In this document: one piece after another, positions 11,442 to 34,329 of the stretch
Layout: the number at the start of each line of letters is the position of its first letter
Position numbering within the stretch: position 1 is the first letter of the stretch
Assembly: GCA_963736855.1 (NCBI GenBank)
Contig: CAVTQK010000021.1
Span: forward strand, 544,001 to 608,000
Length of the DNA stretch: 64,000 bases
Reading direction: 5' to 3'
Origin: an uncultured delta proteobacterium
Lineage (GTDB): Bacteria; Desulfobacterota; Desulfobacteria; Desulfobacterales; UBA2156
Made by a program: the position numbers and the translations under genes
The notes under the pieces: model-generated
What the model was told of the DNA's origin: nothing
Database searches by the model: none
What the model saw: the letters and a program-made list of their open reading frames with translations, nothing else

Positions 11442-13184
11442 ATGGATAAGGCAAGATATCATGATGATTTTTTTGAAAAATGTCCGACGGGCATCAGGGG
11501 TTTCGACGAGATCACAAAGGGTGGGGTCCCGAGGGGCAGGCCCACCCTGATCTGCGGCGGTCCGGGTGCCGGCAAGACACTTTTGGCCATGGAGTTTATC
11601 ATGCGGGGCGCTATGGATTACGGAGAACCCGGGGTCTTCATGACCTTCGAGGAAACACCGGAGGATCTCGCGAAGAACTTCATGTCCCTTGGTTTTGATC
11701 TCCATAAGATGATTTCGCGTGGTCTCATCGCAACGGATCACGTCTACATCGCGCGAAGTGAGATTGAGGAGACGGGTGAGTACGATCTGGAGGGATTGTT
11801 TATCCGCTTGGGAAATGCCATTGATTCCATCGGAGCAAAGCGGGTTGTCTTAGATACCATAGAAGCCCTTTTCTCCGAGCTTCCGAATGCCACTATTCTT
11901 CGGGCAGAGCTTCGTCGGCTTTTTCTCTGGCTGAAAGATCGCGGTGTGACCGCTGTCGTTACTGGGGAAACCGGCGACAAGTCTCTGACACGCTACGGGC
12001 TCGAAGAATATGTCGCCGATTGCGTGATCTTCCTCGACTTCCGCATCGTGAAGCATATTGCGACCCGCCGCCTGCGTATTATCAAGTACCGCGGCTCATC
12101 TCACAGCTCCGACGAGTATCCCTTCCTGATAGGTGAGAGAGGCCTCTCTATCCTGCCGATCACTTCCCTCGGGCTCGACTACCCCGTTTCCACGGAGCGG
12201 ATCTCCACAGGAGTTCCCAAGTTGGATGCCATGCTTGGTGGGAAGGGATTTTTCCGGGGCAGCACCATCCTCGTCTCCGGTACGGCGGGCACAGGAAAAA
12301 CAAGTTTATCGACTACCTTTGCCGACGCCGCCTGCCGGCGAGGGGAGCGCTGCCTGTATTTTGCCTTCGAAGAATCGCCCAGACAGATCATCCGGAACAT
12401 GGGCTCCATCGGCATGGATCTCAAGCGGTGGGTGAAGAAGGGGGTTCTCAAGTTCCATTCAGCCCGGCCTTCGCTTTACGGTCTTGAGACGCATCTTGTC
12501 ACCTTCCACAAGGCGATCGAGGAGTTCACGCCCCAGGTTTTCATTGTAGACCCGATCAGCAACCTGATCAACGTGGGAACCACATCAGAGGTCAAATCCA
12601 TATTAACGCGCCTTATCGATTATTTGAAGATGCAAAAGATCTCCACGTTTCTTACGGACCTCACCCATTTCGGAAGCAGCCTTGAACGCACAAGTGAAGA
12701 GATATCTTCTCTGATCGATACGTGGCTTCTCCTTCGGGATATCGAACTCAATGGGGAACGAAACCGGGGCCTCTACATTTTGAAATCCCGCGGCATGCCC
12801 CACTCCAACCAGATTCAAGAGTTCCTGCTCTCGAACCAGGGCATTGACCTTATTGATATCTATACCGGTTCCGGCGAGGTATTAACCGGCAGTGCCCGGG
12901 CAGCCCAGGAAGGCAAGGAAAAGGCCTTTGAGCTGGCACGCCAACATGAGGTGGATCGCAAGTTCCGCGAGCAGGAGCGCAAGAGGAAGGCCCTGGAAAC
13001 AAAGATCGCAGCCCTCCGCGCCGAGTTTGATGCGGAATCTGAAGAACTGCATTTGATGGGGGAAGAAGAGCGGAAAAGGCAATCTGCCCTGGCGGATAAC
13101 CGTTTGGAGATGGCGCATCTTCGCAAGGGGGAACCTTCAGCAGCCCGACGAAGCGCTCGAAAAAGAAGAGGGAAAGGAGATTAG
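11442..13184 (+). CDS. kaiC: Circadian clock protein KaiC (KaiC2-like, C-terminal coiled coil)
   Basis: Two RecA-like domains ([16 protein letters not shown]), FEE motifs, KYRGS and [12 protein letters not shown] phosphosite region. Confidence 0.93.
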
Positions 13185-13185
13185 G

Positions 13186-13518
13186 ATGAAAGCTGTCTCG
13201 CCAGGGAAGGGGAAGAAAGCAAAGACCGATTCGATAGAAGAAATCTGGAATCTCCGGTTATATGTAGCCGGTCAGACCCAGAAATCGATTACGGCCTTTG
13301 CTAATCTAAAGAAGATCTGCGAAGAGCACCTTGCGGGGAAATACCGCATTGAAGTGATAGACCTTATAGAGAAACCCCAGCTTGCCAAAGGGGATCAGAT
13401 TATTGCCATACCGACACTGGTCAGAAAACTTCCTGAACCGCTTAAAAAGATTATCGGAGATCTGGCCAACACAGAACGCGTCCTGGTGGGACTCGACATT
13501 CGTTCCAGCTCCGGATGA
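13186..13518 (+). CDS. kaiB: KaiB family protein
   Basis: [38 protein letters not shown]. Confidence 0.92.
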
Positions 13519-13523
13519 TAAAT

Positions 13524-13747
13524 CAGAAGTCAGGAGTCAGAATTAAGGAGTTAGGATGAGGACGGCAGACAAACTCCGCTTTTACAACGTCTCACAAGGT
13601 TCCATTGAAGAATCTCGATACTATTTGATTCTCACCAAGGATCTTGAGTACGGCGATGTTTCCGAGTTAGGCCAGTTGCTTGAAGAGGTCAGCAAGCTGT
13701 TGGAGGCCTATTCGCAGGTTGTTCTGAATTCTGACTCCTGAATTCTG
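13524..13747. repeat. 21-bp inverted repeats flanking the four-helix-bundle fragment
   Basis: CAGAAGTCAGGAGTCAGAATT (13524-13544) and AATTCTGACTCCTGAATTCTG (13727-13747), one mismatch. Confidence 0.75.
13556..13741 (+). pseudogene. Four-helix-bundle (23S rRNA IVP/Avd-like) protein, C-terminal half only
   Basis: DKLRFYNVSQGSIEESRYYLILTKDLEYG matches the family C-terminal half; N-terminal half absent. Confidence 0.7.
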
Positions 13748-13779
13748 TCTACCGAGTAGTAACTTTTGGAGTAACAGAG

Positions 13780-14124
13780 ATGGCGCTGAAGAGAGGGAAA
13801 ACGCGTACTGAGGAACTCGAAAAGGCCACAGCGAGGCGCGACAGGGAAAAGTATGTTCTTCGCCTGTATGTTACAGGGTTGACCCCAAGATCAACCCTGG
13901 CAATCGCCAATGTCCGGAAAATCTGTAAAAAATACCTGGCGGGCCGTTACGAACTCGAGGTAATAGACCTCTACCAACAGCCCAAGCTGGCCAAGGGAGA
14001 GCAGATTATTGCCGCCCCAACGCTCATCAAGACACTCCCTCTGCCACTCCGGAGGCTCATCGGCGACATGTCGGATACGGAAAAGTTTCTTATAGGCCTT
14101 GATCTGAAACCCAAGAAATCCTGA
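13780..14124 (+). CDS. kaiB: Second KaiB family protein
   Basis: YVLRLYVTGLTPRS, EVIDLYQQPKLAKGEQIIAAPTL, LIGDMS. Confidence 0.9.
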   Translation: MALKRGKTRTEELEKATARRDREKYVLRLYVTGLTPRSTLAIANVRKICKKYLAGRYELEVIDLYQQPKLAKGEQIIAAPTLIKTLPLPLRRLIGDMSDTEKFLIGLDLKPKKS

Positions 14125-14134
14125 GTACGAATCT

Positions 14135-16111
14135 ATGAACAAATCGTATAGAACACGCCGACAACTTTTGGATGAGTTGCAGGAACTCACATCGCGGATG
14201 ATGGAAGCTGAGGAAACTCTACGAGCTATCCAAAGCGGTGAGGTGGACGGCCTCATTGTCTCAACGACGGAAGGAGATCGCGTCTTTACGCTATCGGGTG
14301 CCGATCATCCTTACAGGGTCATGGTCGAAACAATGAACGAAGGAGCCGTCACCCTTGCCTCCGACGGCACGATCCTTTACAGTAACCAACGTTTTGCCGA
14401 TATCGTCAAAGTGTCTCTGGAAAAAGCAATAGGAACTTCAATCTACCAATATATTTCATCAACAGACCTTCAATTATTTGAGGAATTGGTTAAGCGGGGT
14501 TTAAATGGGAACCGTGAGGGGGAACTGGCCTTACAGGCTGGAGGTGAAAACTCTGTGCCTGTCTTACTTTCCGTAAGTCCCCTTCAACTCACGGACATGC
14601 CCGATGCGGTGTGTGCCATAATAGTGGACATGACCGAGCGCAAGAAGATGGAGGAGGCGCTAAAGAATTCTGAAACTCGCTACCGCCGTCTCTTTGAAGC
14701 AGCTCGAGATGGAATATTAATTCTCGATGCCGAGACAGGACAAATAGTGGATGTTAACCCATTCGTGTTAGAAATATTGGGTTATTCACATGAGGAGCTC
14801 TTAGGGAAGAAACTCTGGGAAATTGGCACCTTTAGAGATATTGAAGAATCGAAAGCCACCTCTGCGGAATTAAAGAGCAAAGGATATGTTCGCTACGATG
14901 ATTTACCGCTGGTGACGAAAGACGGGCGTAAAATTGCCGTGGAATTTGTCAGTAATGTCTATCTGGTCAACCATTACAAAGTGATTCAGTGTAACATCCG
15001 CGACACCACTGAACGGAAACTTACAGGAGAGGCTTTAAAAAAATCTCACAACGAACTGGAACGACAAGCTGTCGAACTTCGGACGGCTCTTTCTGAAATC
15101 AAAACATTGAAAGACCGACTCGAGGCCGAGAATATTTACTTCCGTCACGAACGCAAACTGAAATATCAATTTGAGAATATTATCGGGCAAAGTGATGGTC
15201 TTAAGTATGTTCTCTATCGAGCGGAACAAGTTGCTCCTATGGACACAACAGTCCTCATCCTTGGGGAAACCGGCACGGGAAAAGAGTTGATTGCTGCCGC
15301 CATTCATGGCATGAGTCCGCGTACGAAACGGCCCATGATTATGGTCAACTGTGCTGCCTTGCCTGGCAATTTAATAGAGAGCGAATTGTTCGGCCGGGAG
15401 AAGGGGGCATTTACCGGGGCCGATACCCGGCAGATAGGCCGATTCGAGGTCGCCAATGGTTCCACCCTTTGCTTAGACGAGATCGGGGAGCTGCCGCTGG
15501 AGTTGCAGGCAAAGCTGCTCCGGGTGATTCAGCATGGCGAGTTTGAACGTCTGGGCTCGTCCCATACCATCAAAGTCGATGTGCGAATCGTGGCAACGAC
15601 CAATCGAGACCTTGATGAAGAGGTCCGCAATGGCCGGTTTCGGCAGGACCTTTACTATCGGCTCAACGTCTTTCCCATCACTGTACCACCACTACGGCAG
15701 CGGAAAGAAGACATCCCGTTGTTGGTCAAGACCTTCATAGAGCGATACTCCAGGAAATTGGGGAAACAGATCACATCAATTCAGAAGGAGACGATGAAGG
15801 CTCTGCAGGATTATCCGTGGCCCGGAAACGTCCGGGAGCTGGAAAGCATCATTGAACGGGGCGTGATCTTGTGCCCGGGGCCGGTTTTGCACCTGGCAGA
15901 TAAACTGGAGATTTCATCCCTTCCACTCTCATCCGCCGTGAGAACCCTGGAAGAGATGGAGCGAAACCAGATCCTTAAGATCCTTTCGGAAACCCGATGG
16001 CGCATCGAGGGAAAGAACGGGGCCGCAGCGATTTTGGGCCTCCACCCGAGTACCTTGAGAGCGAGGATGCATAAGCTCGGGATACTTCGGCCGGAAACCA
16101 AGGGGTCGTAA
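14135..16111 (+). CDS. PAS-PAS sigma54-dependent transcriptional activator (bEBP), no receiver domain
   Basis: Two PAS domains, GETGTGKE, ESELFG, GAFTGA, LDEIGE, WPGNVREL, Fis-type HTH. Confidence 0.92.
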   Translation: MNKSYRTRRQLLDELQELTSRMMEAEETLRAIQSGEVDGLIVSTTEGDRVFTLSGADHPYRVMVETMNEGAVTLASDGTILYSNQRFADIVKVSLEKAIGTSIYQYISSTDLQLFEELVKRGLNGNREGELALQAGGENSVPVLLSVSPLQLTDMPDAVCAIIVDMTERKKMEEALKNSETRYRRLFEAARDGILILDAETGQIVDVNPFVLEILGYSHEELLGKKLWEIGTFRDIEESKATSAELKSKGYVRYDDLPLVTKDGRKIAVEFVSNVYLVNHYKVIQCNIRDTTERKLTGEALKKSHNELERQAVELRTALSEIKTLKDRLEAENIYFRHERKLKYQFENIIGQSDGLKYVLYRAEQVAPMDTTVLILGETGTGKELIAAAIHGMSPRTKRPMIMVNCAALPGNLIESELFGREKGAFTGADTRQIGRFEVANGSTLCLDEIGELPLELQAKLLRVIQHGEFERLGSSHTIKVDVRIVATTNRDLDEEVRNGRFRQDLYYRLNVFPITVPPLRQRKEDIPLLVKTFIERYSRKLGKQITSIQKETMKALQDYPWPGNVRELESIIERGVILCPGPVLHLADKLEISSLPLSSAVRTLEEMERNQILKILSETRWRIEGKNGAAAILGLHPSTLRARMHKLGILRPETKGS

Positions 16112-16139
16112 TAGAAAGTTAGATTCTCCGCCGCGGTTC

Positions 16140-16287
16140 CCTCCATATCTGGAGGTTCCACCAAATATTGAGGTCAATCAAATCATTTCACCTTTATCTA
16201 CGCTTCTCCCTTATTCATCTAACCCAGCGTTATGAAAAGATAATCCCAAACTCTTGATTTTTTCACAATGTTGGCAGGTCACTTGCA
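16140..16287 (+). promoter_or_regulatory. Module A: tandem 16-bp palindromes, IHF-like site, sigma54 promoter
   Basis: CCTCCATATCTGGAGG (16140) and CCACCAAATATTGAGG (16158); IHF consensus AATCAAGAGTTTG on the minus strand at 16247-16259; TGGCAGGTCACTTGCA with GG at 16273 and GC at 16285. Confidence 0.8.
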
Positions 16288-16299
16288 ATTACGATCTGC

Positions 16300-16626
16300 A
16301 TGATTCTGGCCATCATACGAATGAAGGTTCTTGCTGAGAAGCGCAAGGAGCTTTCCCAGACGATCGCATTACTGATCGGCTCCCTAAGGACAGAGAAGGG
16401 ATGTCGGCGCTGCGACTTTTACCGGAGTTTGGAGGATAAAAACGAACTCTGTATTCTTGAAGAATGGGATACCCGGGAGAACCTAGATAGCCACCTGAGG
16501 TCGGAGCGTTTTAAGGTCCTTCGGGGGGCGATGAATCTTCTCCAAGAGCCCTACGAAATGATGTTCCACACCGTAGCATCGGGAAAAAAGAAAACGGAAG
16601 CGCGGTCCCAGCCAGCAGTTGAATGA
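16300..16626 (+). CDS. Antibiotic biosynthesis monooxygenase (ABM) family / putative quinol monooxygenase
   Basis: RTEKGC, ILEEWDTRENLDSHLRSERF pattern. Confidence 0.8.
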   Translation: MILAIIRMKVLAEKRKELSQTIALLIGSLRTEKGCRRCDFYRSLEDKNELCILEEWDTRENLDSHLRSERFKVLRGAMNLLQEPYEMMFHTVASGKKKTEARSQPAVE

Positions 16627-16685
16627 CCGGGATGACTGGGGCCAACGTACCATCTCTCAAACCAAATTCCGAAAGGAGGAATACC

Positions 16686-16865
16686 ATGAAATCAAGCAGA
16701 AGGGATGAGACAGAAGGCAAGTTGCACCAAGTGAAAGGTAAGATCAAGGAGATCGCCGGGAGAGTAAGCATGAATCCCGGCTTGGAAGCCGAAGGCAAAG
16801 AGGAAAACAGAACGGGCAAAGTTCAAGAAAAGATCGGCCAGGTCAAGAAGCTCGTTGGGAAGTAA
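16686..16865 (+). CDS. CsbD family general stress protein
   Basis: EGKLHQVKGKIKEIAG...LEAEG...GKVQEKIG; AGGAGG RBS. Confidence 0.85.
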   Translation: MKSSRRDETEGKLHQVKGKIKEIAGRVSMNPGLEAEGKEENRTGKVQEKIGQVKKLVGK

Positions 16866-16961
16866 TAGATGACGCATCCCTCGTGGGCGGCATCGTGTTG
16901 CTGGTCGCGGGAAAGAAGAAGAGCTGGTGAAAGGCAAAACGTTTCAATCACGGAGGTTCTT

Positions 16962-17252
16962 ATGAAAGACAAACGAAAAGCGTACGAAGAAAAGCTCGAT
17001 GCACAGTTGAAGGAATGGAACGCGCAGATCGCTCTGCTCAAGGCCAAGGCGGAGAACGCCAAGGCCGACGCGAAGATCGATCACTACAAAACCATCGACG
17101 CATTGGAGCACAAACAGGATGAGGCCAAGACGAAGCTGCAGGAGTTGAAGATCGCCGGCGATGAGGCATGGGAAGCCGTCAAAGGAGGCGCGGAAAAAGT
17201 CTGGGCTGAAGTCAAAACCGCCTATCACGATGCGGCCTCAAAATTCAAATAA
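16962..17252 (+). CDS. Small coiled-coil stress-associated protein
   Basis: MKDKRKAYEEKLDAQLKEW...AWEAVKGGAEKVW; GGAGG RBS. Confidence 0.7.
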   Translation: MKDKRKAYEEKLDAQLKEWNAQIALLKAKAENAKADAKIDHYKTIDALEHKQDEAKTKLQELKIAGDEAWEAVKGGAEKVWAEVKTAYHDAASKFK

Positions 17253-17559
17253 GGCAGAAACGCTGAACGTATCCGTCTGGCGGCAGGCTGCTTTCTGTTC
17301 AACTGAACGGACATGGGTTGGTAACATCAGTGTCCACAAAAGAAGGTGCGGCATGGAGCAGGGCGAGAAAGAGAAGAAGGATCCGACGCATACAAGCCTA
17401 GGACAAGGAAGAAGCGGGATTGCAACGGTGGTCTTCTGAAAAAATGGATGGTTTAACAAGATTGATGGACCCAACTTGGAAAGATTGAGACAAAGCGGAT
17501 ATTTGGACAAAAGGTCTTATTAGGCATTTAACCACTCACAAAAGAAAGAGAGGCAACTT

Positions 17560-18090
17560 ATGCGTTTTAACAAGATTTTCCTATTGCTACCCTTGAGTCT
17601 GATCGTTGGTCTTTTGGGTTGCACGAAAGAGCAAAAGTCGGAAGCTCCCAAACAGGAGCAGGTTACAAAAAAACTGGTTCCCCCGAAGCTCGAGGTTAAG
17701 GGCGAGAATTTTCTTTTGGAACTCAGCGAACTTCAAGTCGCTATGATGATGGACAATGTTTCAAAGGAAATCACCGAGACGCCGAGTCTTAAAGGCCGCA
17801 TCAAAATAACCAATCAATCCAATGATAATTTGGAAATCCAAGGGATCACCTTGGAATACCTGGATCAAGCGGGTAAGCCCATCCCCTTTGCTTCCGGAGA
17901 GAAAATATCGAAGGCGACCATATGGTTGCAGGCGATCAAGCCCGGAGAAACAAGCGAGGGTTCCATCGATGCCACCATTCCCAGGACGGCGGTCAAGGAA
18001 AAGGCCCTGGGAAAAATTGAAGTCAACCTGGTTTACATCCCAACGCTGCTTAAACGAGAGAGGTTGTCATTTGCTCAAAAGGTTGAATAG
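17560..18090 (+). CDS. Hypothetical lipoprotein
   Basis: Signal peptide with LLGC lipobox; GAGG RBS. Confidence 0.7.
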   Translation: MRFNKIFLLLPLSLIVGLLGCTKEQKSEAPKQEQVTKKLVPPKLEVKGENFLLELSELQVAMMMDNVSKEITETPSLKGRIKITNQSNDNLEIQGITLEYLDQAGKPIPFASGEKISKATIWLQAIKPGETSEGSIDATIPRTAVKEKALGKIEVNLVYIPTLLKRERLSFAQKVE

Positions 18091-18183
18091 CCGTACGGAC
18101 TCATGGAATAGGCATGCGCTCGATGACCCCTCTTGTACCGCCTGGGCGGGACGGGGTCAGCGAGCCAATCAAAAAGGGAAAAA

Positions 18184-19719
18184 ATGAAAGCGCTTCTGAT
18201 ATACCCTCCATACCCGGATACCTTCTGGAGTTTCAAATATGCCCTATCCTTCATATCCAAAAGGGCCGTTCATCCTCCGCTCGGCTTACTCACGGTTGCC
18301 GCGATGCTTCCTGAAGAATGGGAAAAAAGACTCGTGGACATGAATGTGGCCAACTTGAAAGACCGGGATCTTCAGTGGGCCGATTATGTCTTTATCAGTG
18401 CCATGGCGGTCCAAAAGAAATCGGCGAAGGAACTTATTTTCCGGTGTAAGGAATGGGGCCTGAAAGTCGTGGCGGGCGGCCCGCTCTTTACCGCCGCTCC
18501 CGAAGATTTTCCGGAAGTGGACCACCTGGTGCTCAATGAAGCCGAGACTACCCTCCCGGAATTTTTAGAAGATCTGGCCGGAGGTCAGGCCGAACATCTA
18601 TATACGTCCACATCATTTCCGGATCTGGAAAAGACCCCTATTCCCCTCTGGGGACTTTTGGAAATGAAGCGGTATGTCTCCATGAATATGCAATATTCCA
18701 GAGGTTGCCCCTTTCATTGCGAATTTTGTGATATTACGACCCTCTTCGGCCATCGAAGTCGGGCCAAAAAAGTCGGCCAGATACGGAAAGAATTGGAAAC
18801 CCTCTATTCCCTGGGCTGGCGGGGCGGGGTCTTTTTTGTGGATGATAATTTCATAGGCAACAAAAAGAAACTCAAAGAGAATATCCTGCCGGAAATGATC
18901 GACTGGATGAAGAAAACGAAATACCCCTTTAACTTCTCAACCGAAGCGTCCATAAATCTCGCCGACGATGAAGAACTGATGAAGCTGATGATCCAGGCTG
19001 GTTTTAAGTCCGTTTTTGTGGGCATTGAAACCCCGGACGACAGGGCGCTGAAGGAATGCCACAAATTCCAGAACACCAATCGTGATCTCATGGACAGCGT
19101 GGAAAGAATTCAGAAGTTCGGGTTGCGGATGCGGGGAGGCTTCATCGTAGGATTTGATAGCGATTCCCCTGCCATATTTGAAAAGCAGATCGAATTCATT
19201 CAAAAAAGCAAAATTGTCACAGCCATGGTAGGGATGCTGAATGCCCCCCGCGGCAGCCGGCTCTTTGAACGCCTCCAAAAAGAAGGACGACTCTTGAAGG
19301 AAGCCACCGGCGACAATACGGATTTCTCGACCAATATCATCCCCAAAATGGGCTATGAAAAGCTGACTGAGGGATACCGGTACATAGTCAACGGAATCTA
19401 TTCTCCCAGGCTGTATTACGAGCGGGTGAAGGGATTTCTAAGGCAATACAAGCCCCTGGAAAAGAGAAAATGGCACTTCCATTTCAGGTACCTCCGTTGG
19501 TATTTTCCCTATCTCGGCGCCCCTTTCAAAGCACTGATGATATTAGGCATAAAAGATAAGGCCCGGATCTATTACTGGAAACTTTTCTTCTGGTCTTTAT
19601 TCAGACGGCCATTGCTCCTGCCTTTGGCTATAACGTATTCGATTTATGGATTCCATTTCAGAAAAGTATTCAAATTAAACTTCGATACCAACCTGGTACA
19701 TCAGGAAAAAACGATCTGA
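18184..19719 (+). CDS. B12-binding radical SAM protein (DUF4070-type)
   Basis: PPLGLLTVAA, SRGCPFHCEFC, VDDNF, GIET. Confidence 0.85.
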   Translation: MKALLIYPPYPDTFWSFKYALSFISKRAVHPPLGLLTVAAMLPEEWEKRLVDMNVANLKDRDLQWADYVFISAMAVQKKSAKELIFRCKEWGLKVVAGGPLFTAAPEDFPEVDHLVLNEAETTLPEFLEDLAGGQAEHLYTSTSFPDLEKTPIPLWGLLEMKRYVSMNMQYSRGCPFHCEFCDITTLFGHRSRAKKVGQIRKELETLYSLGWRGGVFFVDDNFIGNKKKLKENILPEMIDWMKKTKYPFNFSTEASINLADDEELMKLMIQAGFKSVFVGIETPDDRALKECHKFQNTNRDLMDSVERIQKFGLRMRGGFIVGFDSDSPAIFEKQIEFIQKSKIVTAMVGMLNAPRGSRLFERLQKEGRLLKEATGDNTDFSTNIIPKMGYEKLTEGYRYIVNGIYSPRLYYERVKGFLRQYKPLEKRKWHFHFRYLRWYFPYLGAPFKALMILGIKDKARIYYWKLFFWSLFRRPLLLPLAITYSIYGFHFRKVFKLNFDTNLVHQEKTI

Positions 19720-19738
19720 TCGCTGAACAGGAGACAGT

Positions 19739-20017
19739 ATGTCGACGACCTTTAAATCCAATAGTATAGAACAATTAATGGCTGAGGCCGATGAACTGAT
19801 CGAAAAAATTACTTCTGATTATTTAGAGGACCTGAAAGAGGAGCATCGTCTCCAGTTTGAAAAGCATACTCAGGCATTACAGGAAATCAAGTCTGCGTTT
19901 CAAGCCCGGACCGGGAAGAGAGAACCTTTGGAAGAAGGTTCCTTCGCCGAGGGAATGCACCAGGCAGTCATGGATATCGTGAAGGCCATGAAGGACATGG
20001 TCGGATATTTTGCCTGA
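19739..20017 (+). CDS. Hypothetical helical protein
   Basis: 92-aa ORF with AGGAG RBS, co-oriented with neighbours. Confidence 0.6.
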   Translation: MSTTFKSNSIEQLMAEADELIEKITSDYLEDLKEEHRLQFEKHTQALQEIKSAFQARTGKREPLEEGSFAEGMHQAVMDIVKAMKDMVGYFA

Positions 20018-24931: not shown

Positions 24932-25111
24932 ATGAAATCAGGAACAAGGGACGAAGCGGAAGGCAAGTTTCACCAAATGAAGGGAAAGGTCAAGGAGATC
25001 GCCGGGAAACTGAGCGATGATTCAAACTTGGAAGCTGAAGGTACCAATGAAAAGAGAGCCGGGAAAGTTCAAGAAAAGACCGGCCAGATCAAAAAGGTAC
25101 TGGGGAAGTAG
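24932..25111 (+). CDS. CsbD family protein
   Basis: EGKFHQMKGKVKEIAG...LEAEG...GKVQEK. Confidence 0.85.
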   Translation: MKSGTRDEAEGKFHQMKGKVKEIAGKLSDDSNLEAEGTNEKRAGKVQEKTGQIKKVLGK

Positions 25112-25261: not shown

Positions 25262-26044
25262 ATGAAAGCAATATATAATGTATCTTTAATAGCAGCAGCG
25301 ATCACTCTCTTTGTGATCAGCGTGCCTGTGCAGGCGTCAAAAATGGATGAGCAAATCGTATCGTCAGCCCAAAAGTCGTATGTGTTCAAGACCTACCTCA
25401 AGGACGATGATATTAAAATCCAGTCCAAGGATAGCGTTGTCACCTTGACCGGGACTGTTTCTGAAGAAGGCCACAAACAATTGGCCCGGGAGACTGTTGC
25501 AAGCCTGCCCGGAGTTAAAAGCGTGGACAACAAGTTGGAATTAAAAGGTGAAGTCCCTGCTGAGCACTCGGATGCGTGGCTCATGACGAAGGTGAAAACC
25601 AGCCTCCTGTTCCATCGCAGCGTGAGCGCCATCGCAACCGAGATCGATGTCAAAGACGGCGTCGTGACTCTGCGTGGTGATACTGCCAATCAGGCACAAA
25701 AAGACCTGACAACCGAGTACGCCAAGGATGTTGATGGGGTCAAAGAGGTCAAGAATGAGATGACAGTTGCAAAGACCCCTAAAAAACCGGAAGAAAAAAC
25801 GATGGGCAAAAAGATGAGTGACATTGTTGAAAAGATTGATGACGCATCCATCACCGCCCTGGTCAAGAGTACGTTGCTGTATCATCGCTCGACCAGCGGC
25901 CTCAACACCAAGGTCGAGACGAACAATGGAGTGGTCACATTGAGTGGCAAGGCCAAAAACAAGGCTGAAAAAGATCTGGCCACCAAATTTGTAAGTGATG
26001 TTCACGGCGTAAAGAAGGTGGTCAATAAAATGACCGCCCAGTGA
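25262..26044 (+). CDS. Periplasmic protein with three BON domains
   Basis: Signal peptide; three VVTLxG...GV..V.N units. Confidence 0.85.
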   Translation: MKAIYNVSLIAAAITLFVISVPVQASKMDEQIVSSAQKSYVFKTYLKDDDIKIQSKDSVVTLTGTVSEEGHKQLARETVASLPGVKSVDNKLELKGEVPAEHSDAWLMTKVKTSLLFHRSVSAIATEIDVKDGVVTLRGDTANQAQKDLTTEYAKDVDGVKEVKNEMTVAKTPKKPEEKTMGKKMSDIVEKIDDASITALVKSTLLYHRSTSGLNTKVETNNGVVTLSGKAKNKAEKDLATKFVSDVHGVKKVVNKMTAQ

Positions 26045-26099: not shown

Positions 26100-26267
26100 C
26101 ATCTATCCTATGAGCAGCTTCGTGGATTCCGCAAAGGTCTCCGTCAGGGCTGTATAGCGAAATCAGTCAAGGGTATCAAAGCTGTCAAAAACAGCCTTGT
26201 CGTGAAATGAACCGGCTGAAGCCAATTGATTTTGGATTTCAAATCATTTTTCAAAGGAGGACAAATC

Positions 26268-26425
26268 ATGCCAATCGGCACAATCTTACTCATAATTCTG
26301 ATACTGGCACTTGTGGGAATAATCCCAGTCTGGCCGCATAGCCGATCGTGGGGGTATGCACCCTTCGGTGTTGTGGGGCTGGTGGGATTATCCTTGTGAT
26401 TCTGCTCTTAATTGGCAGAATATAA
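26268..26425 (+). pseudogene. DUF3309 family membrane protein, frameshifted
   Basis: MPIGTILLIIL...WPHSRSWGYAP; the family-like tail IILVILLLIGRI* is in another frame (shift near 26385). Confidence 0.7.
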
Positions 26426-26797: not shown

Positions 26798-26849
26798 TAA
26801 AACCTAAACTGAGCGATTTTTTATGAAAAATCGCTCAGTTTAGGTTTTA
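26798..26849. repeat. Perfect 24-bp inverted repeat with a 4-nt loop
   Basis: TAAAACCTAAACTGAGCGATTTTT-TATG-AAAAATCGCTCAGTTTAGGTTTTA. Confidence 0.9.
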
Positions 26850-26859
26850 GGAAAGTGAC

Positions 26860-28338
26860 ATGATGACGAATACAGACGACAGACGACAACGCTCAATCCT
26901 GCAGAGAATTGCCCATCGGGCGATGCTGGAAAGAGGACTTTTTCCGGATTTTCCCATCCAGGCGCTTGCAGAGCTCGACAAAATAATTGGGCCGGCGACG
27001 CAAACTGGGGAATCGATGCGCGATCTCAGGAACCTTCTCTGGTGCTCCATAGACAACGATGATTCGCTTGATCTGGACCAGCTTACCGTTGCCGAAGGCC
27101 TGCCCGACGGGGCCGCAAAGGTCCGGGTCGCTATTGCCGACGTTGACGCTGTCGTCAAAAAACGATCGGCCCTTGACAATCACGCGCGGCAAAACACCAC
27201 CTCGGTCTACACGATCGCCCAGACGTTTCCGATGCTGCCCGAGAAACTCTCCACGGATCTTACCTCTCTCAACTATAAATCAGACCGCCTGGCCATCGTC
27301 ATTGAAATGGTTCTTGCCGGAGATGGATCGGTACAGAGTTCGGACATTTATCGAGCGACGGTGCGTAATCAGGCCAAGCTGGCCTACAACAGCGTTGCCG
27401 CTTGGCTCGAGGGTAATGGTTCGATGCCGGAAGGGATCGGCATAGTCAAAGGTCTCGACGAAAACCTTCGACTTCAGGACCGCGTGGCACAGAAACTGAA
27501 AGCGCTCCGGCACCTGCACGGTGCGCTGGATCTCGAAACAATCGAAGCCCGTCCGATTTTTGACGGAGATCAGCTCAAGGATTTGGAAGCCGACAAAGGG
27601 AACCGGGCTAAGGAAATTATTGAGGACTTCATGATCGCTGTCAACGGCGTTACCGCGCGATACCTCGCGTCTAAAAAGGTTACATCGCTGCGGCGCGTGG
27701 TTCGCACACCCAACCGCTGGGACCGCATCATCGAGATTGCCGCAGAGCGGGGCTCAACGTTGCCCAGGGAGCCCGACGCAAAGGCACTGGAGCAATTCCT
27801 GGTATCGGCGAAAGCTGCCGATCCTCTGCGCTTTGCCGATCTCTCTCTCAGCGTCATCAAACTCCTGGGTTCGGGTGAATACGTCATCCAACTTTCGGGA
27901 GGCAGTGTCGCCGGGCACTTCGGTCTTGCGGTCAAGGACTATGCACACTCCACCGCCCCGAACCGTCGATACCCCGATCTGATTACCCAGCGGTTGTTGA
28001 AAGCGGCAATGGCGGGACGTGCCCAGCCGTACGAGAACGATGAATTGACAGCGCTCGCCAAGCACTGCACGAAAGCGGAAGATGCAGCGAAAAAAGTGGA
28101 GCGGCAAATCACAAAATCCGCCGCTGCCATGCTATTGGAATCAAGGATCGGGGAGCAGTTCGATGCCATCGTCACCGGCGCATCGTACAAAGGCACGTGG
28201 GTCCGTCTTCTGCATCCGCCCATTGAAGGAAGACTGGAGAGCGGTTTTGAAGGCATGGATGTCGGCCAGAGGCTCCGTGTGCAACTGGTCCGCACAAATG
28301 TGGAGCGCGGATATATCGACTTTACGAGAGTGGTGTAA
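26860..28338 (+). CDS. RNB domain ribonuclease (RNase II/R family, short form)
   Basis: SIDNDDSLDLDQ, IADVD, IEDFM, GHFGLA, HSTAPNRRYPDL. Confidence 0.88.
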   Translation: MMTNTDDRRQRSILQRIAHRAMLERGLFPDFPIQALAELDKIIGPATQTGESMRDLRNLLWCSIDNDDSLDLDQLTVAEGLPDGAAKVRVAIADVDAVVKKRSALDNHARQNTTSVYTIAQTFPMLPEKLSTDLTSLNYKSDRLAIVIEMVLAGDGSVQSSDIYRATVRNQAKLAYNSVAAWLEGNGSMPEGIGIVKGLDENLRLQDRVAQKLKALRHLHGALDLETIEARPIFDGDQLKDLEADKGNRAKEIIEDFMIAVNGVTARYLASKKVTSLRRVVRTPNRWDRIIEIAAERGSTLPREPDAKALEQFLVSAKAADPLRFADLSLSVIKLLGSGEYVIQLSGGSVAGHFGLAVKDYAHSTAPNRRYPDLITQRLLKAAMAGRAQPYENDELTALAKHCTKAEDAAKKVERQITKSAAAMLLESRIGEQFDAIVTGASYKGTWVRLLHPPIEGRLESGFEGMDVGQRLRVQLVRTNVERGYIDFTRVV

Positions 28339-28356: not shown

Positions 28357-28701
28357 ATGACGAGAGAGTCACCCCTGAAACCAGCTAACCCACGCATCCT
28401 CACGATCAATGGCGGCTCGTCGAGCATCAAGTTCGCGCGCCTCACTCTTAGGAGGCAGAGTAGCGGGGAGGAGTTGGCTTTCGGAGAAATCTCAACAGGA
28501 GCCCAAAACGACTTGCTGCTGGCTACAGACATTGTCAAATCCATGGTCACGGAATATGGCATGAACGATCGTCCGGGGCTTGTGACCTATGCACACGCTC
28601 GTCAGCCTCTGTTCCCGCCGGGAAGATTTGCTCCCAGCAAAATCTCCATCCAAACCATTGACTCTTCGGCCGGAAACCAAGGGGTCGTAATAGAAAGTTA
28701 G
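28357..28701 (+). pseudogene. Chimeric remnant: acetate kinase N-terminus fused to an internal ftsH fragment
   Basis: [14 protein letters not shown] followed by [30 protein letters not shown], similar to the intact ftsH at ~32240-32400. Confidence 0.75.
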
Positions 28702-28718: not shown

Positions 28719-28866
28719 CCTCCATATCTGGAGGTTCCACCAAATATTGAGGTCAATCAAATCATTTCACCCTTATCTACGCTTCTCCCTTATTCATCTA
28801 ACCCAGCGTTATGAAAAGATAATCCCAAACTCTTGATTTTTTCACAATGTTGGCAGGTCACTTGCA
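28719..28866 (+). promoter_or_regulatory. Module D: tandem palindromes plus sigma54 promoter
   Basis: Sites at 28719 and 28737; TGGCAGGTCACTTGCA with GG at 28852. Confidence 0.8.
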
Positions 28867-28878
28867 ATTACGATTTGC

Positions 28879-29205
28879 ATGATTCTGACCATCATACGAA
28901 TGAAGGTTCTTGCTGAGAAGCGCAAGGAGCTTTCCCAGACGATCGCATTACTGATCGGCTCCCTAAGGACAGAGAAGGGATGTCGGCGCTGCGACTTTTA
29001 CCGGAGTTTGGAGGATAAAAATGAACTCTGTATTCTTGAAGAATGGGATACCCGGGAGAACCTAGATAGCCACCTGAAGTCGGAGCGTTTTAGGGTCCTT
29101 CGGGGGGCGATGAATCTTCTCCAAGAGCCCTACGAAATGATGTTCCACACCGTAGCATCGGGAAAAAAGAAAACGGAAGCGCGGTCCCAGCCAGCAGTTG
29201 AATAA
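28879..29205 (+). CDS. ABM family monooxygenase, copy 2
   Basis: Near-identical to 16300-16626. Confidence 0.8.
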   Translation: MILTIIRMKVLAEKRKELSQTIALLIGSLRTEKGCRRCDFYRSLEDKNELCILEEWDTRENLDSHLKSERFRVLRGAMNLLQEPYEMMFHTVASGKKKTEARSQPAVE

Positions 29206-29264
29206 CCGGGATGACTGGGGCCAACGTACCATCTCTCAAACCAAATTCCGAAAGGAGGAATACC

Positions 29265-29444
29265 ATGAAATCAAGCAGAAGGGATGAGACAGAAGGCAAG
29301 TTGCACCAAGTGAAAGGTAAGATCAAGGAGATCGCCGGAAAAGTAAGCATGAATCCCGGCTTGGAAGCCGAAGGCAAAGAGGAAAACAGAACGGGCAAAG
29401 TTCAAGAAAAAATCGGCCAGTTCAAGAAACTCGTGGGGAAGTAA
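29265..29444 (+). CDS. CsbD family protein, copy
   Basis: Near-identical to 16686-16865. Confidence 0.85.
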   Translation: MKSSRRDETEGKLHQVKGKIKEIAGKVSMNPGLEAEGKEENRTGKVQEKIGQFKKLVGK

Positions 29445-29527
29445 AACGGAGTATCTTACGACGACACCCCTTGATCCCGCAGCCGCGGTTGGGTGTATAA
29501 TTGAGGATAAAGGAAAGGAGAAATGTC

Positions 29528-29680
29528 ATGGGAATAATCCTGATTGTCATTCTGGTTATCCTGCTTGTCGGCACTCTGCCCACCTGGCGCCACAGCTCTA
29601 GCTGGGGACCTTATCCCAGCGGCGGAATCGGATTGATTCTTCTGATCATAATCATCCTGTTACTGCTGGGACGGATCTGA
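29528..29680 (+). CDS. DUF3309 family small membrane protein (50 aa)
   Basis: Not in the ORF track; MGIILIVILVILLVGTLPTWRHSSSWGPYPSGGIGLILLIIIILLLLGRI; AGGAG RBS. Confidence 0.82.
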   Translation: MGIILIVILVILLVGTLPTWRHSSSWGPYPSGGIGLILLIIIILLLLGRI

Positions 29681-29966
29681 GATGGCGGTGAGGCATATGA
29701 ATTAATCCTCTGAATGCGGAATGGATAAGTTAGATTCTAATGGATTTCTGATAAAGTCGATGAGAAGAACCGGCTATGGATGCAATTCTATCTTCGTTTG
29801 AACGATGATAAGTCATACACCATAACACTTTCAATCATGCTGATCCAAGAGCTTTTTTAATAGGATGAGACGAAATGAAAGGAGTCAAGATTGAAGCAAT
29901 CGTTCGATCGGGCGCTTAAATGACTGCGGGGTCGGGTACACTTTTGCCCCAGGAAGGTAAATCAAC

Positions 29967-30455
29967 ATGAAAAGGGTCGCAATAATAGTCGGTGCAGGAA
30001 TTTTTCTGGTAATCGTGCTCTTCGGTTGGTGGGTCACCAGCCGTCCCGAACGCGGGACGACCGGCTCGGTCAGCACGAATTTTCGATGGCTCGGCCCCAA
30101 CGATAAGATCGTGGTCGACGGCTTCGACGACCCTAAGGTCCAGGGTGTCGCCTGTCACCTTTCCCGGGCACAAACCGGAGGCGTAAAAGGCGCTATGGGC
30201 GTGGCGGAGGATACCAGTGACGCCAGCATCGCCTGCCGTCAGGTAGGCCCAATCAAGATTCTTGGTGAAATCAAGGACGGCGAGCGCGTCTTTGACGAGC
30301 ACCGTAGCCTGGTTTTCAAGACACTACAAGTCGTGCGCTTCTTCGACCGCAAGCGCAATGTTTTAGTCTACGTTTCCTACAGCGATCGGATTATCGCGGG
30401 CAGCCCGCAGAACAGTATCAGCACAGTGCCGATCATGGGTTGGCCGGCACCATAA
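29967..30455 (+). CDS. creA: CreA family protein
   Basis: [46 protein letters not shown]. Confidence 0.85.
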
Positions 30456-30458
30456 GTT

Positions 30459-30707
30459 GATGAAGGCTGGATTGTACTCACAGATGGCGTCGGGCCTATG
30501 CGTCAGTATTGCATCGGGGCCATACTGCTTGATCTTGAATAGCCTACAAAAATAATCGCTCGCCTGGAAAATCCGCTGCTTGCCCCGCACGAAAAAGAGC
30601 GCGAGGGATATGTTCCCAATATTGTTTATTCCTGCGGTGCGATAATTCATAACAACGAGTTAGTCATTCCCTACGCCATGAAAAACTTAAGAAGCTACCT
30701 TTCATAA
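30459..30707 (+). pseudogene. GH130-like glycosidase/phosphorylase C-terminal fragment
   Basis: EGWIVLT.GVGPMRQYCIGAILLDLE*P...EREGYVPNIVYSCG..LVIPYA, internal stop. Confidence 0.7.
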
Positions 30708-30719
30708 AGGAGCGGGTAA

Positions 30720-32615
30720 ATGTCAAGAAAAAGAGAAGACGAACCACAGGAAAATCTAATGGATAGACTTCGCGCCATGTTCGGTTTTCAAAACCCGGAT
30801 AAAAAGAATGCTCTGCCACCGAAAGCTCACTTCAGCATCTGGTATTTTCTGATTGCCGTTTTTGCATTTTCTTTCATTCAACAATACTTTTTTTCCGGCA
30901 AAGTGGAGACGATTCCTTATAGCCAGTTCAAACAATACGTAGCTCAAGGCAACGTCGCAAAATTGAGTATCGGCCCTGAGGTTATCAGCGGAACGCTAAA
31001 AGGAGCTTTGGGTCAGAACTTCACCACGATTCGGGTGAATGATCCCGGGCTTGTGAAAGAGTTGGATGAAAACAAAATAAACTATTCTGGATACTTTGAA
31101 AGCCAATTGGTGGGCACGATTCTATCCTGGGTTGTTCCAATCGGCATCTTTTTTCTGATCTGGCGCTACGTCATGAACAAAATGGGTCCGGGGATGGGGG
31201 TCATGTCATTCAGCAAGAGCAAAGCCAAGATCTTTGCCGAAACCGAGACGAAAGTCACTTTTGCTGATGTCGCCGGCATCGATGAGGCCAAAGAAGAGCT
31301 TAAGGAAGTGGTTGAGTTTTTGCAAAACCCGGAGAAATTTCAAAAATTGGGAGGGAGGATTCCCAAAGGGGTGCTTCTGGTAGGCCTGCCCGGGACCGGC
31401 AAAACTCTTCTGGCAAAAGCCGTGGCCGGAGAGGCCAAAGTTACTTTCTTCAGCATCAGCGGGTCTGAATTTGTGGAAATGTTCGTCGGCGTAGGTGCAG
31501 CTCGTGTCCGCGATCTTTTCTCTCAGGCTGCTGCTCAAGCACCCTGTATCATCTTCATCGATGAATTGGATGCGTTAGGTAAAGCTCGCGGTGTGAATGT
31601 CTTTGGCGGGCATGATGAACGCGAGCAGACTCTGAACCAGCTCCTGGTGGAAATGGATGGGTTCGAAACGAATAAAGGGGTCATCATCATGGCTGCTACC
31701 AACCGACCGGAAATATTAGACCCCGCATTGTTGCGCCCGGGGCGGTTTGATCGTCAGGTCTTAATCGATCGGCCGGATATAAACGGGAGGGAAGCAATCC
31801 TGAAAATTCATTGCAAGCATGTCGTGTTGGATTCTGATGTCGATCTGCGCAAGATCGCCGGTCTTACTCCGGGTTTTGTGGGGGCTGATTTAGCCAACCT
31901 CGTCAATGAGTCCGCCCTTTTGGCGGCCCGGAAAAACAGAGAAACGGTAGGGTCGGCGGAGTTCGATGAAGCGATCGACCGTGTGGTGGGAGGGTTGGAG
32001 AAAAAAAATCGGGTAATGAATTCAAAAGAGAAAGAAATCGTATCTTTTCACGAGTCCGGGCATGCGATCGTGGCTGAATCTGTTGACCATGCCGACCCGG
32101 TGCACAAAGTCTCCATTATTCCACGCGGGATTGCGGCTCTCGGATATACTCAACAGCGACCTACTGAGGACCGCTACTTGATGACTCGTTCGGAGCTGCT
32201 GGACCGACTGGCCGTTCTGCTGGGTGGCCGGGTAGCGGAGGAACTGGTTTTTAATGAAATCTCCACCGGGGCTCAGAACGACCTGCAACGCGCTACGGAT
32301 ATTGTACGATCCATGGTCACGGAATATGGCATGAGCGATCGTATGGGGTTAGTAACATATGAACGCACTCGCCAACCCATGTTCCTCCCGGGAAATTTTA
32401 CCCAGAGTAATACCTACAGTGAAGAGAAAGCCGCCCAAATTGATGAGGAAATCGCTCGGTTCATCGAGGAGGCCCATCAACGGGTGAAAAAAATCCTCTC
32501 GGAGCGGCGTAAGATCCTGGATGAGTTGGCACATCTCCTTTCGGAGAAGGAAAGCGTTCAGGGAGAGGAACTCAGAAAGATGTTGTCCGAATCCAAGCTC
32601 GAAATAGTGAATTGA
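30720..32615 (+). CDS. ftsH: ATP-dependent zinc metalloprotease FtsH (accessory paralog)
   Basis: Two TM segments, [29 protein letters not shown]. Confidence 0.93.
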
Positions 32616-32812: not shown

Positions 32813-32960
32813 CCTCCACATCTGGAGGTTCCACCAAATATTGAGGCCAAACCAATCGAATCATCCTTCTCCACTTTCCACTCATGTTACTCTAATCCAT
32901 TGTTATTAAAGAGTGATTCCAGCTTTATGGTTTTCACGGTCTTCTGGCAAGCCATTTGCA
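32813..32960 (+). promoter_or_regulatory. Module E: tandem palindromes plus sigma54 promoter
   Basis: Sites at 32813 and 32831; TGGCAAGCCATTTGCA with GG at 32946. Confidence 0.8.
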
Positions 32961-33048
32961 GTGATTACTTGCATGATCCTTGATACCAAGGGCCCAGAAG
33001 GTAAATTTATATGGAAAGACGAATTGAATCGTCAGAAAGGAGGCGAAC

Positions 33049-33198
33049 ATGCTTTGGACCATATTAGTGATTCTCTTAGTTTTGTGGCTTGCTGGATTAA
33101 TGAGCGGCTACACGTTGGGCGGAATCATTCATATCTTGCTGATCATTGCCGTCATCGTGTTGGTGGTCCAACTTATTCAGGGACGAAAAATATTGTAA
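33049..33198 (+). CDS. lmo0937 family small membrane protein (49 aa)
   Basis: Not in the ORF track; MLWTILVILLVLWLAGLMSGYTLGGIIHILLIIAVIVLVVQLIQGRKIL; AGGAGG RBS. Confidence 0.82.
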   Translation: MLWTILVILLVLWLAGLMSGYTLGGIIHILLIIAVIVLVVQLIQGRKIL

Positions 33199-33307
33199 CC
33201 GGTACATAATTCCGGATACACCCGCGGCATTTTAAAATACAAACTTTGCCTGAGGCCATCTTGGAGAAATCGAAACACATACTAAGTTAGAAAGGAGGCC
33301 AGTTGCC

Positions 33308-33442
33308 ATGCAAATGAGTCTATCGCCACAGCCGATAGTTTCCTTAATCGCGGGAATCTTGATTCTCCTTGTCCCGAGGCTGCTGAATTACATCGTTGCC
33401 ATCTATCTTATTATATTTGGCATCCTCGGATTGATTCGCTGA
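33308..33442 (+). CDS. DUF3096 family protein, copy 2
   Basis: Near-identical to 21298-21432. Confidence 0.8.
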   Translation: MQMSLSPQPIVSLIAGILILLVPRLLNYIVAIYLIIFGILGLIR

Positions 33443-33512
33443 ATGGCGCGAGAATGTAGAAAAGGTCTTATAATCAACCAATTCACTACAAACCCAAAAA
33501 GGAGTAACCGCA

Positions 33513-33812
33513 ATGAAAAAGAGAAATGTCTTTATCCACTGTTTACTAGTTCTTATGCTGATCGGCACTCTTGCAGCCTGTGCATCGACATCCACCCGGG
33601 AAAGTACAGGGGAATACGTCGACGATTCGGTCATCACGACCAAGGTAAAATCTCTGCTTGCCGGAGATGATTTTCTCAAGTCATTCCAGATTGGTGTCGA
33701 AACTTACAAGGGCGTCGTTCAACTGAGCGGTTTTGTGAACACTAAAGAAGCCTCCAATAAAGCGGCTCAAATCGCCGGCGGCGTCAAAGGAGTCAAATCC
33801 GTTAAAGAATGA
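33513..33812 (+). CDS. BON domain lipoprotein, copy 2 (C-terminal frameshift)
   Basis: As 21504-21818 but a 1-nt insertion gives ...SVKE* instead of ...SVKNDLVVK*. Confidence 0.75.
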   Translation: MKKRNVFIHCLLVLMLIGTLAACASTSTRESTGEYVDDSVITTKVKSLLAGDDFLKSFQIGVETYKGVVQLSGFVNTKEASNKAAQIAGGVKGVKSVKE

Positions 33813-34329
33813 TCTGGTCGTGAAATAGCGACCGGCATCCCTTACCGGATGGAATATGGCAAAACCTGTTCACCCAAAACCTGGATTTCAATGAGATTCG
33901 GTTTGGAGGAGAAATGCATAAAAATAAACAATTACAGAGAATCCGTCCGGTTCAGAACCCTCAGATCAAAAAATGATCGGGATAGGAGAGGGTTTGATTC
34001 CCCTCTCCTTCCCATGCTGGATATTGTATGGATTCTTAATCATTAAAGGAAAACATCGTACCCGTTTTGAAAAGATCTTGTCATCAATACGTGATTAATA
34101 GTAGAATCCCCGCCACAAAACCAAGTACTTGATCCGCAATGCCAGGATACCCGCGATGCTTCAGCCGTGCTGTGAAGCTGGTGTTTGAATTCCCACGCTT
34201 TGCGATCCAATCACCGGAAAGATATTTGTAAAAGATAAGTCAAGATGAAGCACTCATCACCCTTAGGGCCTCTTGACGCGATCTCTGCTCAAAGTTAGGA
34301 TGCCTTAATTATCAATTGCAGATAATGAT

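Follow-up and report, generated by a model that had tools for sequence, protein, structure and literature searches.

An accessory island of a Desulfobacterales bacterium with a probably Kai-coupled sigma-54 stress regulon

The gene block considered here lies in a stretch of 64,000 nucleotides, below called the window, from an uncultured bacterium of the Desulfobacterales (assembly GCA_963736855.1, contig CAVTQK010000021.1, positions 544,001 to 608,000 of the forward strand; coordinates below count from the first letter of the window). It starts with kaiC and two kaiB genes, which are followed by the gene of a sigma-54 activator, that is, a bacterial enhancer-binding protein (bEBP), and it continues with small stress-type genes behind five copies of one kind of enhancer-promoter cassette (Table 1). 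On the basis of the comparisons described below, we consider it likely, with a probability of roughly 0.7, that the block is an accessory island carrying a sigma-54 stress regulon coupled to the Kai proteins.

Results and Discussion

Kai genes and activator

The kaiC, kaiB1, kaiB2 and activator genes all lie on the + strand in an operon-like arrangement, with intergenic gaps of 1-10 nt except for a 260-nt insert between the kaiB genes, where the usual gap in related loci is ~25 nt. The first-pass annotation had read them as a co-oriented cluster without kaiA, and the Pfam assignments, the gene positions and a genome-wide search bear this out. The search covered the whole genome, which is 100% complete (3.91 Mb in 25 contigs, with one true KaiC and one rpoN), and gave no match to KaiA (PF07688), while it was positive in a Synechococcus control. 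Lacking KaiA, the set is not a KaiABC circadian oscillator.

By sequence criteria the KaiC is a double-domain KaiC, with two tandem RecA-like domains, the CII phosphosite pair and the C-terminal extension. The closest solved structures are 8dba and 8fwi (568-aa KaiC, E 1e-187), and the alignment to them spans the extension, reaching residue 554 of 582. The S424-S425 pair aligns with the Ser-Ser of 8dba (Glu-Glu in 8fwi) and is invariant in 16 orthologues, as are the Walker A and catalytic Glu-Glu residues (G46-K47-T48, E72-E73, G287-K288-T289 and E312-E313). Both KaiB copies, 53% identical to each other, have a domain matching solved KaiB structures. At one related locus (L018, 7538-9619), kaiC and kaiB1 form a single 693-codon frame, which is either a true fusion or a sequencing error. 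Across 13 aligned regions upstream of kaiC, neither a cassette-type enhancer nor a sigma-54 promoter was found, and the only conserved stretch there is a sigma-70-like sequence.

The activator begins with a helix and a PAS domain (PAS1, residues 1-175, encoded at 14135-14659), followed by PAS2, an AAA+ domain (PF00158, Sigma54_activat, E 6.7e-71) and HTH_8 (E 1e-5). With GAFTGA and the Walker A sequence GETGTGKE in its translation, a C-terminal HTH and rpoN in the genome, it belongs to the bEBPs; its candidate cognate upstream sites and −24/−12 promoters are assigned by co-occurrence and position. Pfam finds no HisKA or HATPase domain in it, and the sigma-54 AAA+ and HTH domains take the place of the kinase. 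The genome encodes ~18 further activators, none of them a member of this family.

Enhancer-promoter cassettes

Each cassette consists of two tandem 16-bp palindromes with the consensus CCTCAATATATTGAGG-TT-CCACCAAATATTGAGG, an A/T block in mid-spacer and a −24/−12 element of the form TGGCA-N6-TTGC. The strict palindrome motif occurs ten times in the window, as five tandem pairs, and one TGGCA-N6-TTGC follows each pair, 132-133 nt after the palindrome start. With up to one mismatch, 12 matches were obtained against 2.47 expected, a number reached in 0 of 100 shuffles. The tandem form is confined to these five places in the 3.9-Mb genome; the exact TGGCA-N6-TTGC occurs 55 times genome-wide.

Five sigma-54 promoters, each with an upstream double palindrome, had been claimed at first inspection, and all five are found at the coordinates given for them. 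However, only three independent types are represented, since cassettes A and D (99% identical) and B and E (95-99%) are segmental duplicates, genes included. The three types are ~64% alike, with the palindromes, the mid-spacer A/T block and the −24/−12 elements invariant. The A/T block showed no match to the E. coli consensus for IHF.

A sixth, partly decayed cassette is located on the minus strand of another contig (C19, ~66.4-68.8 kb). Its first palindrome is decayed and its promoter is identical to that of cassette C; behind it follow a CsbD remnant, a 3xBON gene (79% identical to that of the island) and a copy of the 62-aa open reading frame (ORF; 80%). Thus either the regulon extends past the island or the assembly splits it, and the original picture of input, transducer, cis-element and outputs all in one island is not supported in that form.

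Enhancer and activator across genomes

A scan of a genome collection with the activator as query gave 78 related loci, which together with the window amount to 1.23 Mb. Going by the record titles, the hosts are nearly all uncultured Thermodesulfobacteriota, including Syntrophaceae, Smithella, Desulfobacteraceae, Desulfatiglandaceae, Desulfomonilia and Syntrophorhabdus. In this set there are 88 enhancer sites at ≤7 substitutions, 87 of which are accompanied by TGGCA-N6-TTGC (≤1 mismatch), and in 86 of these 87 cases the two elements start 129-134 nt apart. An enhancer lies by the stop codon, mostly at +24 to +30, in 47 of the 53 family activator genes for which ≥250 nt of downstream sequence are available. 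No enhancer match was obtained in the 254,751 bases of 16 control loci whose activators are unrelated.

The co-occurrence was also evaluated in an even sample of the phylum (301 genomes), using the enhancer 22-mer at ≤2 mismatches and, as probe for the activator, its C-terminal 129 residues at ≥72% identity, the next best match being at 59%. The 22-mer was found in 20 genomes and the C-terminus in 17; both are present in 16, the C-terminus only in 1, the 22-mer only in 4 and neither in 280. No match to the reversed 22-mer pattern was found in any of the 301 genomes. We give no test statistic for these counts because related genomes are not independent. The first-pass annotation had proposed such a co-occurrence test for its claim that activator, cis-element and local stress-type regulon belong together, and the claim passes it, both in the genome counts and in the position of the enhancer.

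PAS1 and the Kai proteins

The case for the Kai link rests on PAS1. Among the 53 family ORFs, kaiB lies directly upstream in 36 (of 52 assessable), with kaiC too wherever the flank allows, 16 are unlinked and 1 is not assessable; this high linked share arises because several of the peptide patterns used in the scan lie in PAS1. An alignment was made from 41 of the 53 ORFs and the window, leaving out 12 cut or frameshifted ORFs. PAS1 is present there in 26 of 26 Kai-linked ORFs, compared to 0 of the 16 rows labelled unlinked, which include one (L017) where kaiB is not assessable. Helix and PAS domain (residues 1-172) are strongly conserved across all 26 linked proteins, and six linked variants have kept PAS1 without PAS2; the unlinked rows have different PAS domains or none. 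A tree of the AAA+/HTH core requires at least nine changes between the linked and unlinked states, which means that the sensor modules have been swapped repeatedly, PAS1 nonetheless always staying with Kai.

The genes upstream of the unlinked members are varied. At two loci a gene for a CheB-CheR-PAS fusion adjoins such a member (L008, 7095-9758; L006, 11718-14801); in L008 it overlaps the activator start, and in L006 it comes first after the cassette.

The association was found to reach beyond this activator family. PAS1 is homologous, from the N-terminus on, to the proteins after kaiC-kaiB(-kaiB) on all five alphaproteobacterial plasmids examined (Cereibacter sphaeroides KD131, Pararhizobium, Rhizobium, Sinorhizobium and Falsirhodobacter), with matches at E 5e-31 to 3e-14 starting from residue ~5-15, and controls at E 3e-4 or worse. 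The reverse search was tried with two of these kinases, those of Cereibacter and Pararhizobium, and their N-terminal parts match only PAS1 in the 3.9-Mb genome. In the phylum sample, a PAS1 protein is encoded directly 3' of 15 of the 18 KaiC matches (≥55% identity clade), the other 3 abutting contig ends, and PAS1 occurs in none of the 13 genomes whose only KaiC is <50% identical. At E ≤1e-26 the sample has 21 PAS1 matches, 15 of them Kai-adjacent, 2 at contig starts and 4 without an adjoining KaiC. Ten Kai-adjacent PAS1 proteins were scanned, and their ends are HisKA/HATPase, HisKA_3, HisKA_2/HWE, LuxR HTH, GAF-HD and sigma-54 AAA+, the last representing a second activator lineage. The initially postulated Kai link thus finds support in a Kai-specific N-terminal PAS domain.

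PAS1 is also seen fused to other sigma-54 activator lineages, at L060 (52% overall identity), downstream of whose activator there is no enhancer of this type, and at L103 (G258:C250; 58% identity over residues 176-508), where the contig ends inside the gene. A Kai-linked 708-aa protein (G183:C37) is without the C-terminus of the present family. From these cases, the fusion of PAS1 to an activator probably arose more than once. A complex prediction with KaiC, KaiB1, KaiB2 and PAS1 (residues 1-175) gave ipSAE values of 0.04 and 0.01, against a mark of 0.32, a result that weighs neither way.

Stress genes and island

The first genes behind cassettes A to E encode ABM, DUF3096, CsbD, ABM and DUF5670 proteins, in that order, and BON, DUF3309, RNB RNase, CreA and FtsH follow further downstream in the same orientation. 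The identities first assigned by inspection (ABM, CsbD, BON, DUF3096, lmo0937, that is DUF5670, DUF3309, the RNase, of the RNB family, and FtsH) agree with Pfam. Counted over 83 cassettes, the first ORF is by Pfam ABM in 27 cases, CsbD in 4, BON, DUF3309, DUF5670 and OmpA in 2 each, and Usp, LTXXQ and others in one each; 32 are without a family match. In most ABM-first cassettes, those of the related loci included, the ABM start codon comes 12-14 nt after the −12 TTGC without a Shine-Dalgarno sequence (16286-16302 and 28865-28881 in the window), so that the mRNA would have no leader or hardly any; transcription is predicted to start ~12 nt after TTGC. Being of the −24/−12 sigma-54 type, the promoters place the genes outside SigB/RpoS-type control by an alternative sigma factor of the sigma-70 family. 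Terminator and sigma-70 scans of the island gave nothing above chance. At locus L042 (19621-21949), cassettes precede the genes of a PilZ protein and a 261-aa sigma-70-family sigma factor, so that the regulon may launch a second regulatory tier there.

The RNA data consist of contigs of related organisms only, mostly 90-95% alike; they come from two metatranscriptomes, which contain 5% of the words, and from one run of unspecified kind. Summed over contigs, the depth in run X2 falls from 2074 to 117 over ABM-CsbD and is ≤60 over kaiB2 and the activator, with a jump between the bins 16171-16321 and 16322-16472; contig depth being unable to rank genes, this jump is a hint at most.

The island has at its left edge, just 5' of kaiC, an ISL3-family transposase fragment covering the first 65 of 240 profile positions. 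Ordinary metabolic genes and pst/phoU genes flank the block, the G+C content is slightly below that of the flanks, and gene fragments (M41, HAD and the 23S_rRNA_IVP type) and duplications are frequent. None of 30 relatives yielded a full-length match to the activator, and a genome of the same genus matched it over residues 293-657 only; distant families, by contrast, carry copies of PAS1 (82-86% identity, 72% in one) and of KaiC (82-86%). The island is thus accessory, as had been suggested, and the system is real, conserved and mobile.

As to the remaining features in Table 1, relatives of the genes at 16869-20017 turn up again in other islands. The single-domain response regulator has a 55-residue N-terminal extension and recurs in five related loci (L001, L008, L047, L050 and L052), in L050 immediately after a cassette, as its first gene; it may serve in feedback or branching. 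A perfect inverted repeat of 20 bp, whose arms enclose a 4-nt loop (26802-26845), lies between the 62-aa ORF and the gene of the RNB RNase; it could act in termination or processing, or be a repeat element. The fragment between the kaiB genes (61 codons, four-helix type) covers only the second half of the 23S_rRNA_IVP profile and has a sole match among the related loci, 84% identical, in L053. Short CAGAATA-type repeats lie 3' of the activator gene in loci L044 and L053.

Table 1. Features of the island, in window coordinates
Feature	Position	Strand	Basis or remark
ISL3-family transposase fragment, left edge of island	10688-11056	+	Pfam DDE_Tnp_ISL3 E 1.9e-12
kaiC, KaiA-independent type with C-terminal extension	11436-13184	+	Pfam KaiC x2, E 4.5e-109
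kaiB1	13186-13518	+	Pfam KaiB E 3.7e-27; PDB 8fwj_M KaiB E 6.9e-29
23S-rRNA-intervening-sequence-type gene fragment	13556-13741	+	Pfam 23S_rRNA_IVP E 3e-7, below cut-off
kaiB2	13780-14124	+	Pfam KaiB E 3e-24; PDB 8fwj_M E 1.4e-26
Sigma-54 activator, PAS1-PAS2-AAA+-HTH_8, 658 aa	14135-16111	+	Pfam, translation
Cassette A	16140-16286	+	palindromes 16140-16173 (starts 16140/16158); A/T block ~16205-16235; −24/−12 element 16272-16286
ABM	16300-16626	+	Pfam; start codon 13 nt after TTGC, no Shine-Dalgarno
CsbD	16623-16865	+	Pfam
Co-oriented genes after cassette A	16869-20017	+	two without family match, radical SAM enzyme, 92-aa ORF
B12-binding radical SAM enzyme	18133-19719	+	Pfam
HAD hydrolase fragment, C-terminal third	20300-20647		gene fragment within island
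Cassette B	21058-21204	+	palindromes 21058-21091 (starts 21058/21076); promoter 21190-21204
DUF3096	21298-21432	+	Pfam
BON	21504-21818	+	Pfam
Rest of stretch after cassette B	to 24617	+	238-aa protein without family match, response regulator, small ORFs
Single-domain response regulator	22636-23157	+	Pfam
Cassette C	24644-24791	+	palindromes 24644-24677 (starts 24644/24662); promoter 24777-24791
CsbD	24932-25111	+	Pfam
3xBON	25262-26044	+	Pfam
DUF3309	26226-26399	+	Pfam
RNB-family RNase	26860-28338	+	Pfam
M41 peptidase fragment	28357-28701	+	74% like 3' part of the island's FtsH gene
Cassette D, 99% duplicate of A	28719-28865	+	palindromes 28719-28752 (starts 28719/28737); promoter 28851-28865
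ABM, CsbD, DUF3309 (29501-29680), CreA (29967-30455), FtsH (30720-32615)	28879-32615	+	Pfam
Cassette E, 95-99% duplicate of B	32813-32959	+	palindromes 32813-32846 (starts 32813/32831); promoter 32945-32959
DUF5670/lmo0937-type	33049-33198	+	Pfam
DUF3096 copy	~33308-33442	+	placed via 99% repeat
BON	33513-33812	+	Pfam
Whole stretch after cassette E, with a 65-aa ORF; right end of island	33049-34046	+	

Proposed mechanism and alternatives

The mechanism that we propose starts from the computed gene content, cassette anatomy, activator-enhancer co-occurrence and PAS1-Kai association. From these we infer DNA binding by the activator, a physical contact of PAS1 with KaiB or KaiC, direct signalling as the first-pass annotation had put it forward, and the direction, the sign and any timing behaviour of the control. 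The state of the KaiA-independent KaiC, with its Ser-Ser phosphosite, would be determined by KaiB, probably together with the nucleotide or energy status. PAS1 of the activator would read this state and gate the assembly or the ATPase of the AAA+ ring. Bound to the tandem palindromes, which start 129-134 nt before TGGCA, the activator would then open the sigma-54 promoter, helped by a bend at the conserved A/T spacer block. This would drive the small stress and envelope proteins (ABM, CsbD, BON and DUF3096/3309/5670) and, further along the co-oriented runs, the RNB RNase, CreA and FtsH.

It is important to point out that several observations weigh against a regulon coupled to Kai in this way. 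This KaiC clade is present in only 5 of the 17 phylum-sample genomes with the activator family and lacking in 12, and the unlinked family members have the same enhancer together with other N-terminal sensors; the first-pass view of activator, enhancer and stress regulon as specific to Kai can therefore not be kept. A small ligand could be what PAS1 senses, input could also enter through PAS2, and there are the four PAS1-like matches without an adjoining KaiC, which are the weakest ones (34-40% identity). Furthermore, the five local cassettes count as three, the co-transcription of the RNB RNase, CreA and FtsH genes with the cassettes is only putative, and with no enhancer before kaiC there is no visible feedback loop.

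One alternative is that the Kai proteins and the activator are merely co-expressed from a shared operon, the activator being switched by a small-molecule or redox signal at its PAS domains and KaiBC acting separately, for example as a stress ATPase. Ligand binding is common among PAS domains, and the 12 of 17 sampled genomes in which the same activator core, enhancer and stress genes occur with other sensors and without Kai fit this view. PAS1, however, follows KaiC-KaiB whatever the output domain (15 of 18 loci, 5 of 5 plasmids, 26/26 vs 0/16 in the alignment), and such tracking across output types would be difficult to account for if PAS1 and Kai were not functionally tied, which makes co-expression alone unlikely. 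The tie could also run in the reverse direction or both ways, with the PAS1 protein mainly serving as an input that sets the KaiC state and the sigma-54 output as a side branch. That classic output modules (kinase, LuxR HTH, sigma-54 AAA+ with HTH) form the C-terminal ends of the PAS1 proteins, and that the activator adjoins its own candidate target promoters, speaks against such wiring, and we judge it quite unlikely, even though the comparative data give association rather than direction and CikA works both ways in cyanobacteria.

Finally, the palindromes might be bound by a different regulator, the cassette being a promoter module that spreads by duplication and has landed near the activator. 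The whole ~150-bp unit is indeed homologous between copies, and two local pairs are recent duplicates. Set against this, the genome-level co-occurrence with the activator C-terminus (16/1/4/280), the enhancer at the 3' end of 47 of 53 activator genes and the lack of any family member among the ~18 other activators of the genome leave this scenario highly improbable. We thus retain the Kai-coupled regulon, for which a wider reading can be put forward tentatively, at rather less than even odds: PAS1 may be a general Kai-output adaptor that plugs a KaiA-less KaiBC energy/time switch into any effector, be it a sigma-54 activator, a histidine kinase, a LuxR regulator or a GAF-HD enzyme. In bacteria of dark, anoxic sediment and peat, KaiC state would then gate a dormancy or stress programme through the sigma-54 version.

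Relation to known systems

The classical sigma-54 enhancer-promoter unit is NtrC at glnAp2 with its IHF bend. The present cassettes resemble it in the tandem dimer sites ~100-130 nt upstream, the A/T-rich mid-spacer, the GG-N10-GC −24/−12 element and the GAFTGA activator. They differ in that the input is a Kai-associated PAS domain and not a receiver domain, in the unusually rigid spacing (129-134 nt, 86/87) and in the reuse of the cassette before many small stress genes. The general stress regulons of SigB and RpoS include CsbD, OsmY/BON and Usp, and the families overlap with those found here (CsbD, BON, Usp, envelope and protease functions); here, in contrast, sigma-54 and an enhancer-binding protein take the place of a sigma-70-family stress sigma factor, and the genes are clustered on a mobile island.

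The structures 8dba, 8fwi and 8fwj we take to be those of the KaiA-independent KaiBC "hourglass" of Rhodobacter sphaeroides, with which the present system has the C-terminal extension (to residue 554), the Ser-Ser phosphosite and the KaiB partner in common. Unlike R. sphaeroides, the hosts are, going by the record titles, anaerobic, non-phototrophic Thermodesulfobacteriota. We know of no targets of the kaiC-kaiB-PAS/kinase operons described so far. Such an operon is known in Rhodopseudomonas palustris and Rhodobacter, according to PMC4794148, and shares with the present one the order kaiC, kaiB, PAS protein and the absence of KaiA. The KaiC type is also the same (best PDB matches 8dba/8fwi; 55% identity to the KaiC of Cereibacter KD131), and in the Cereibacter KD131 plasmid operon the downstream protein likewise has the homologous PAS domain at its N-terminus. 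The two kaiB genes, found likewise in Pararhizobium, differ from the purple-bacterial operon. Gene order and homologous PAS thus agree with this operon type, but the histidine kinase does not: the transmitter here is a sigma-54 AAA+ with HTH, which means that the output would be direct transcription, with candidate target promoters visible next door. We read the sigma-54 version as a new output form of this known operon type, one whose regulon is unusually explicit.

In environmental Pseudomonas, KaiC-like proteins are encoded beside histidine kinases and have stress phenotypes, and the KaiC binds the neighbouring kinase, as stated in a preprint (bioRxiv 10.1101/2022.01.26.477890). That case is similar in that a KaiC homologue shares its operon with a signalling protein and has been suggested to act in stress, while, going by the same text, those genomes are without KaiB, the output is a kinase and target promoters are not known. 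No link of KaiC with sigma-54/RpoN was found in PMC6822775 and PMC12288465. Our literature searches, which had subscription journals outside their coverage, found no paper joining KaiC to sigma-54 activators and, in line with the novelty tentatively claimed at the outset, no earlier description of such a circuit.

Conclusions

The present results bear on the function of Kai proteins outside cyanobacteria and on the route from Kai state to gene expression. With the output protein being a transcription activator itself, and its candidate sites and promoters adjoining, the list of candidate targets is short and defined, and a reporter system from the island could be rebuilt in a standard host. 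PAS1 is a testable candidate contact domain for all kaiC-kaiB-PAS operons. The island also illustrates a way of assembling and spreading a stress regulon, namely by identical enhancer-promoter cassettes that form a mobile set. If PAS1 is indeed a general Kai-output adaptor, this would be the first complete input-to-promoter wiring diagram of a non-cyanobacterial Kai system.

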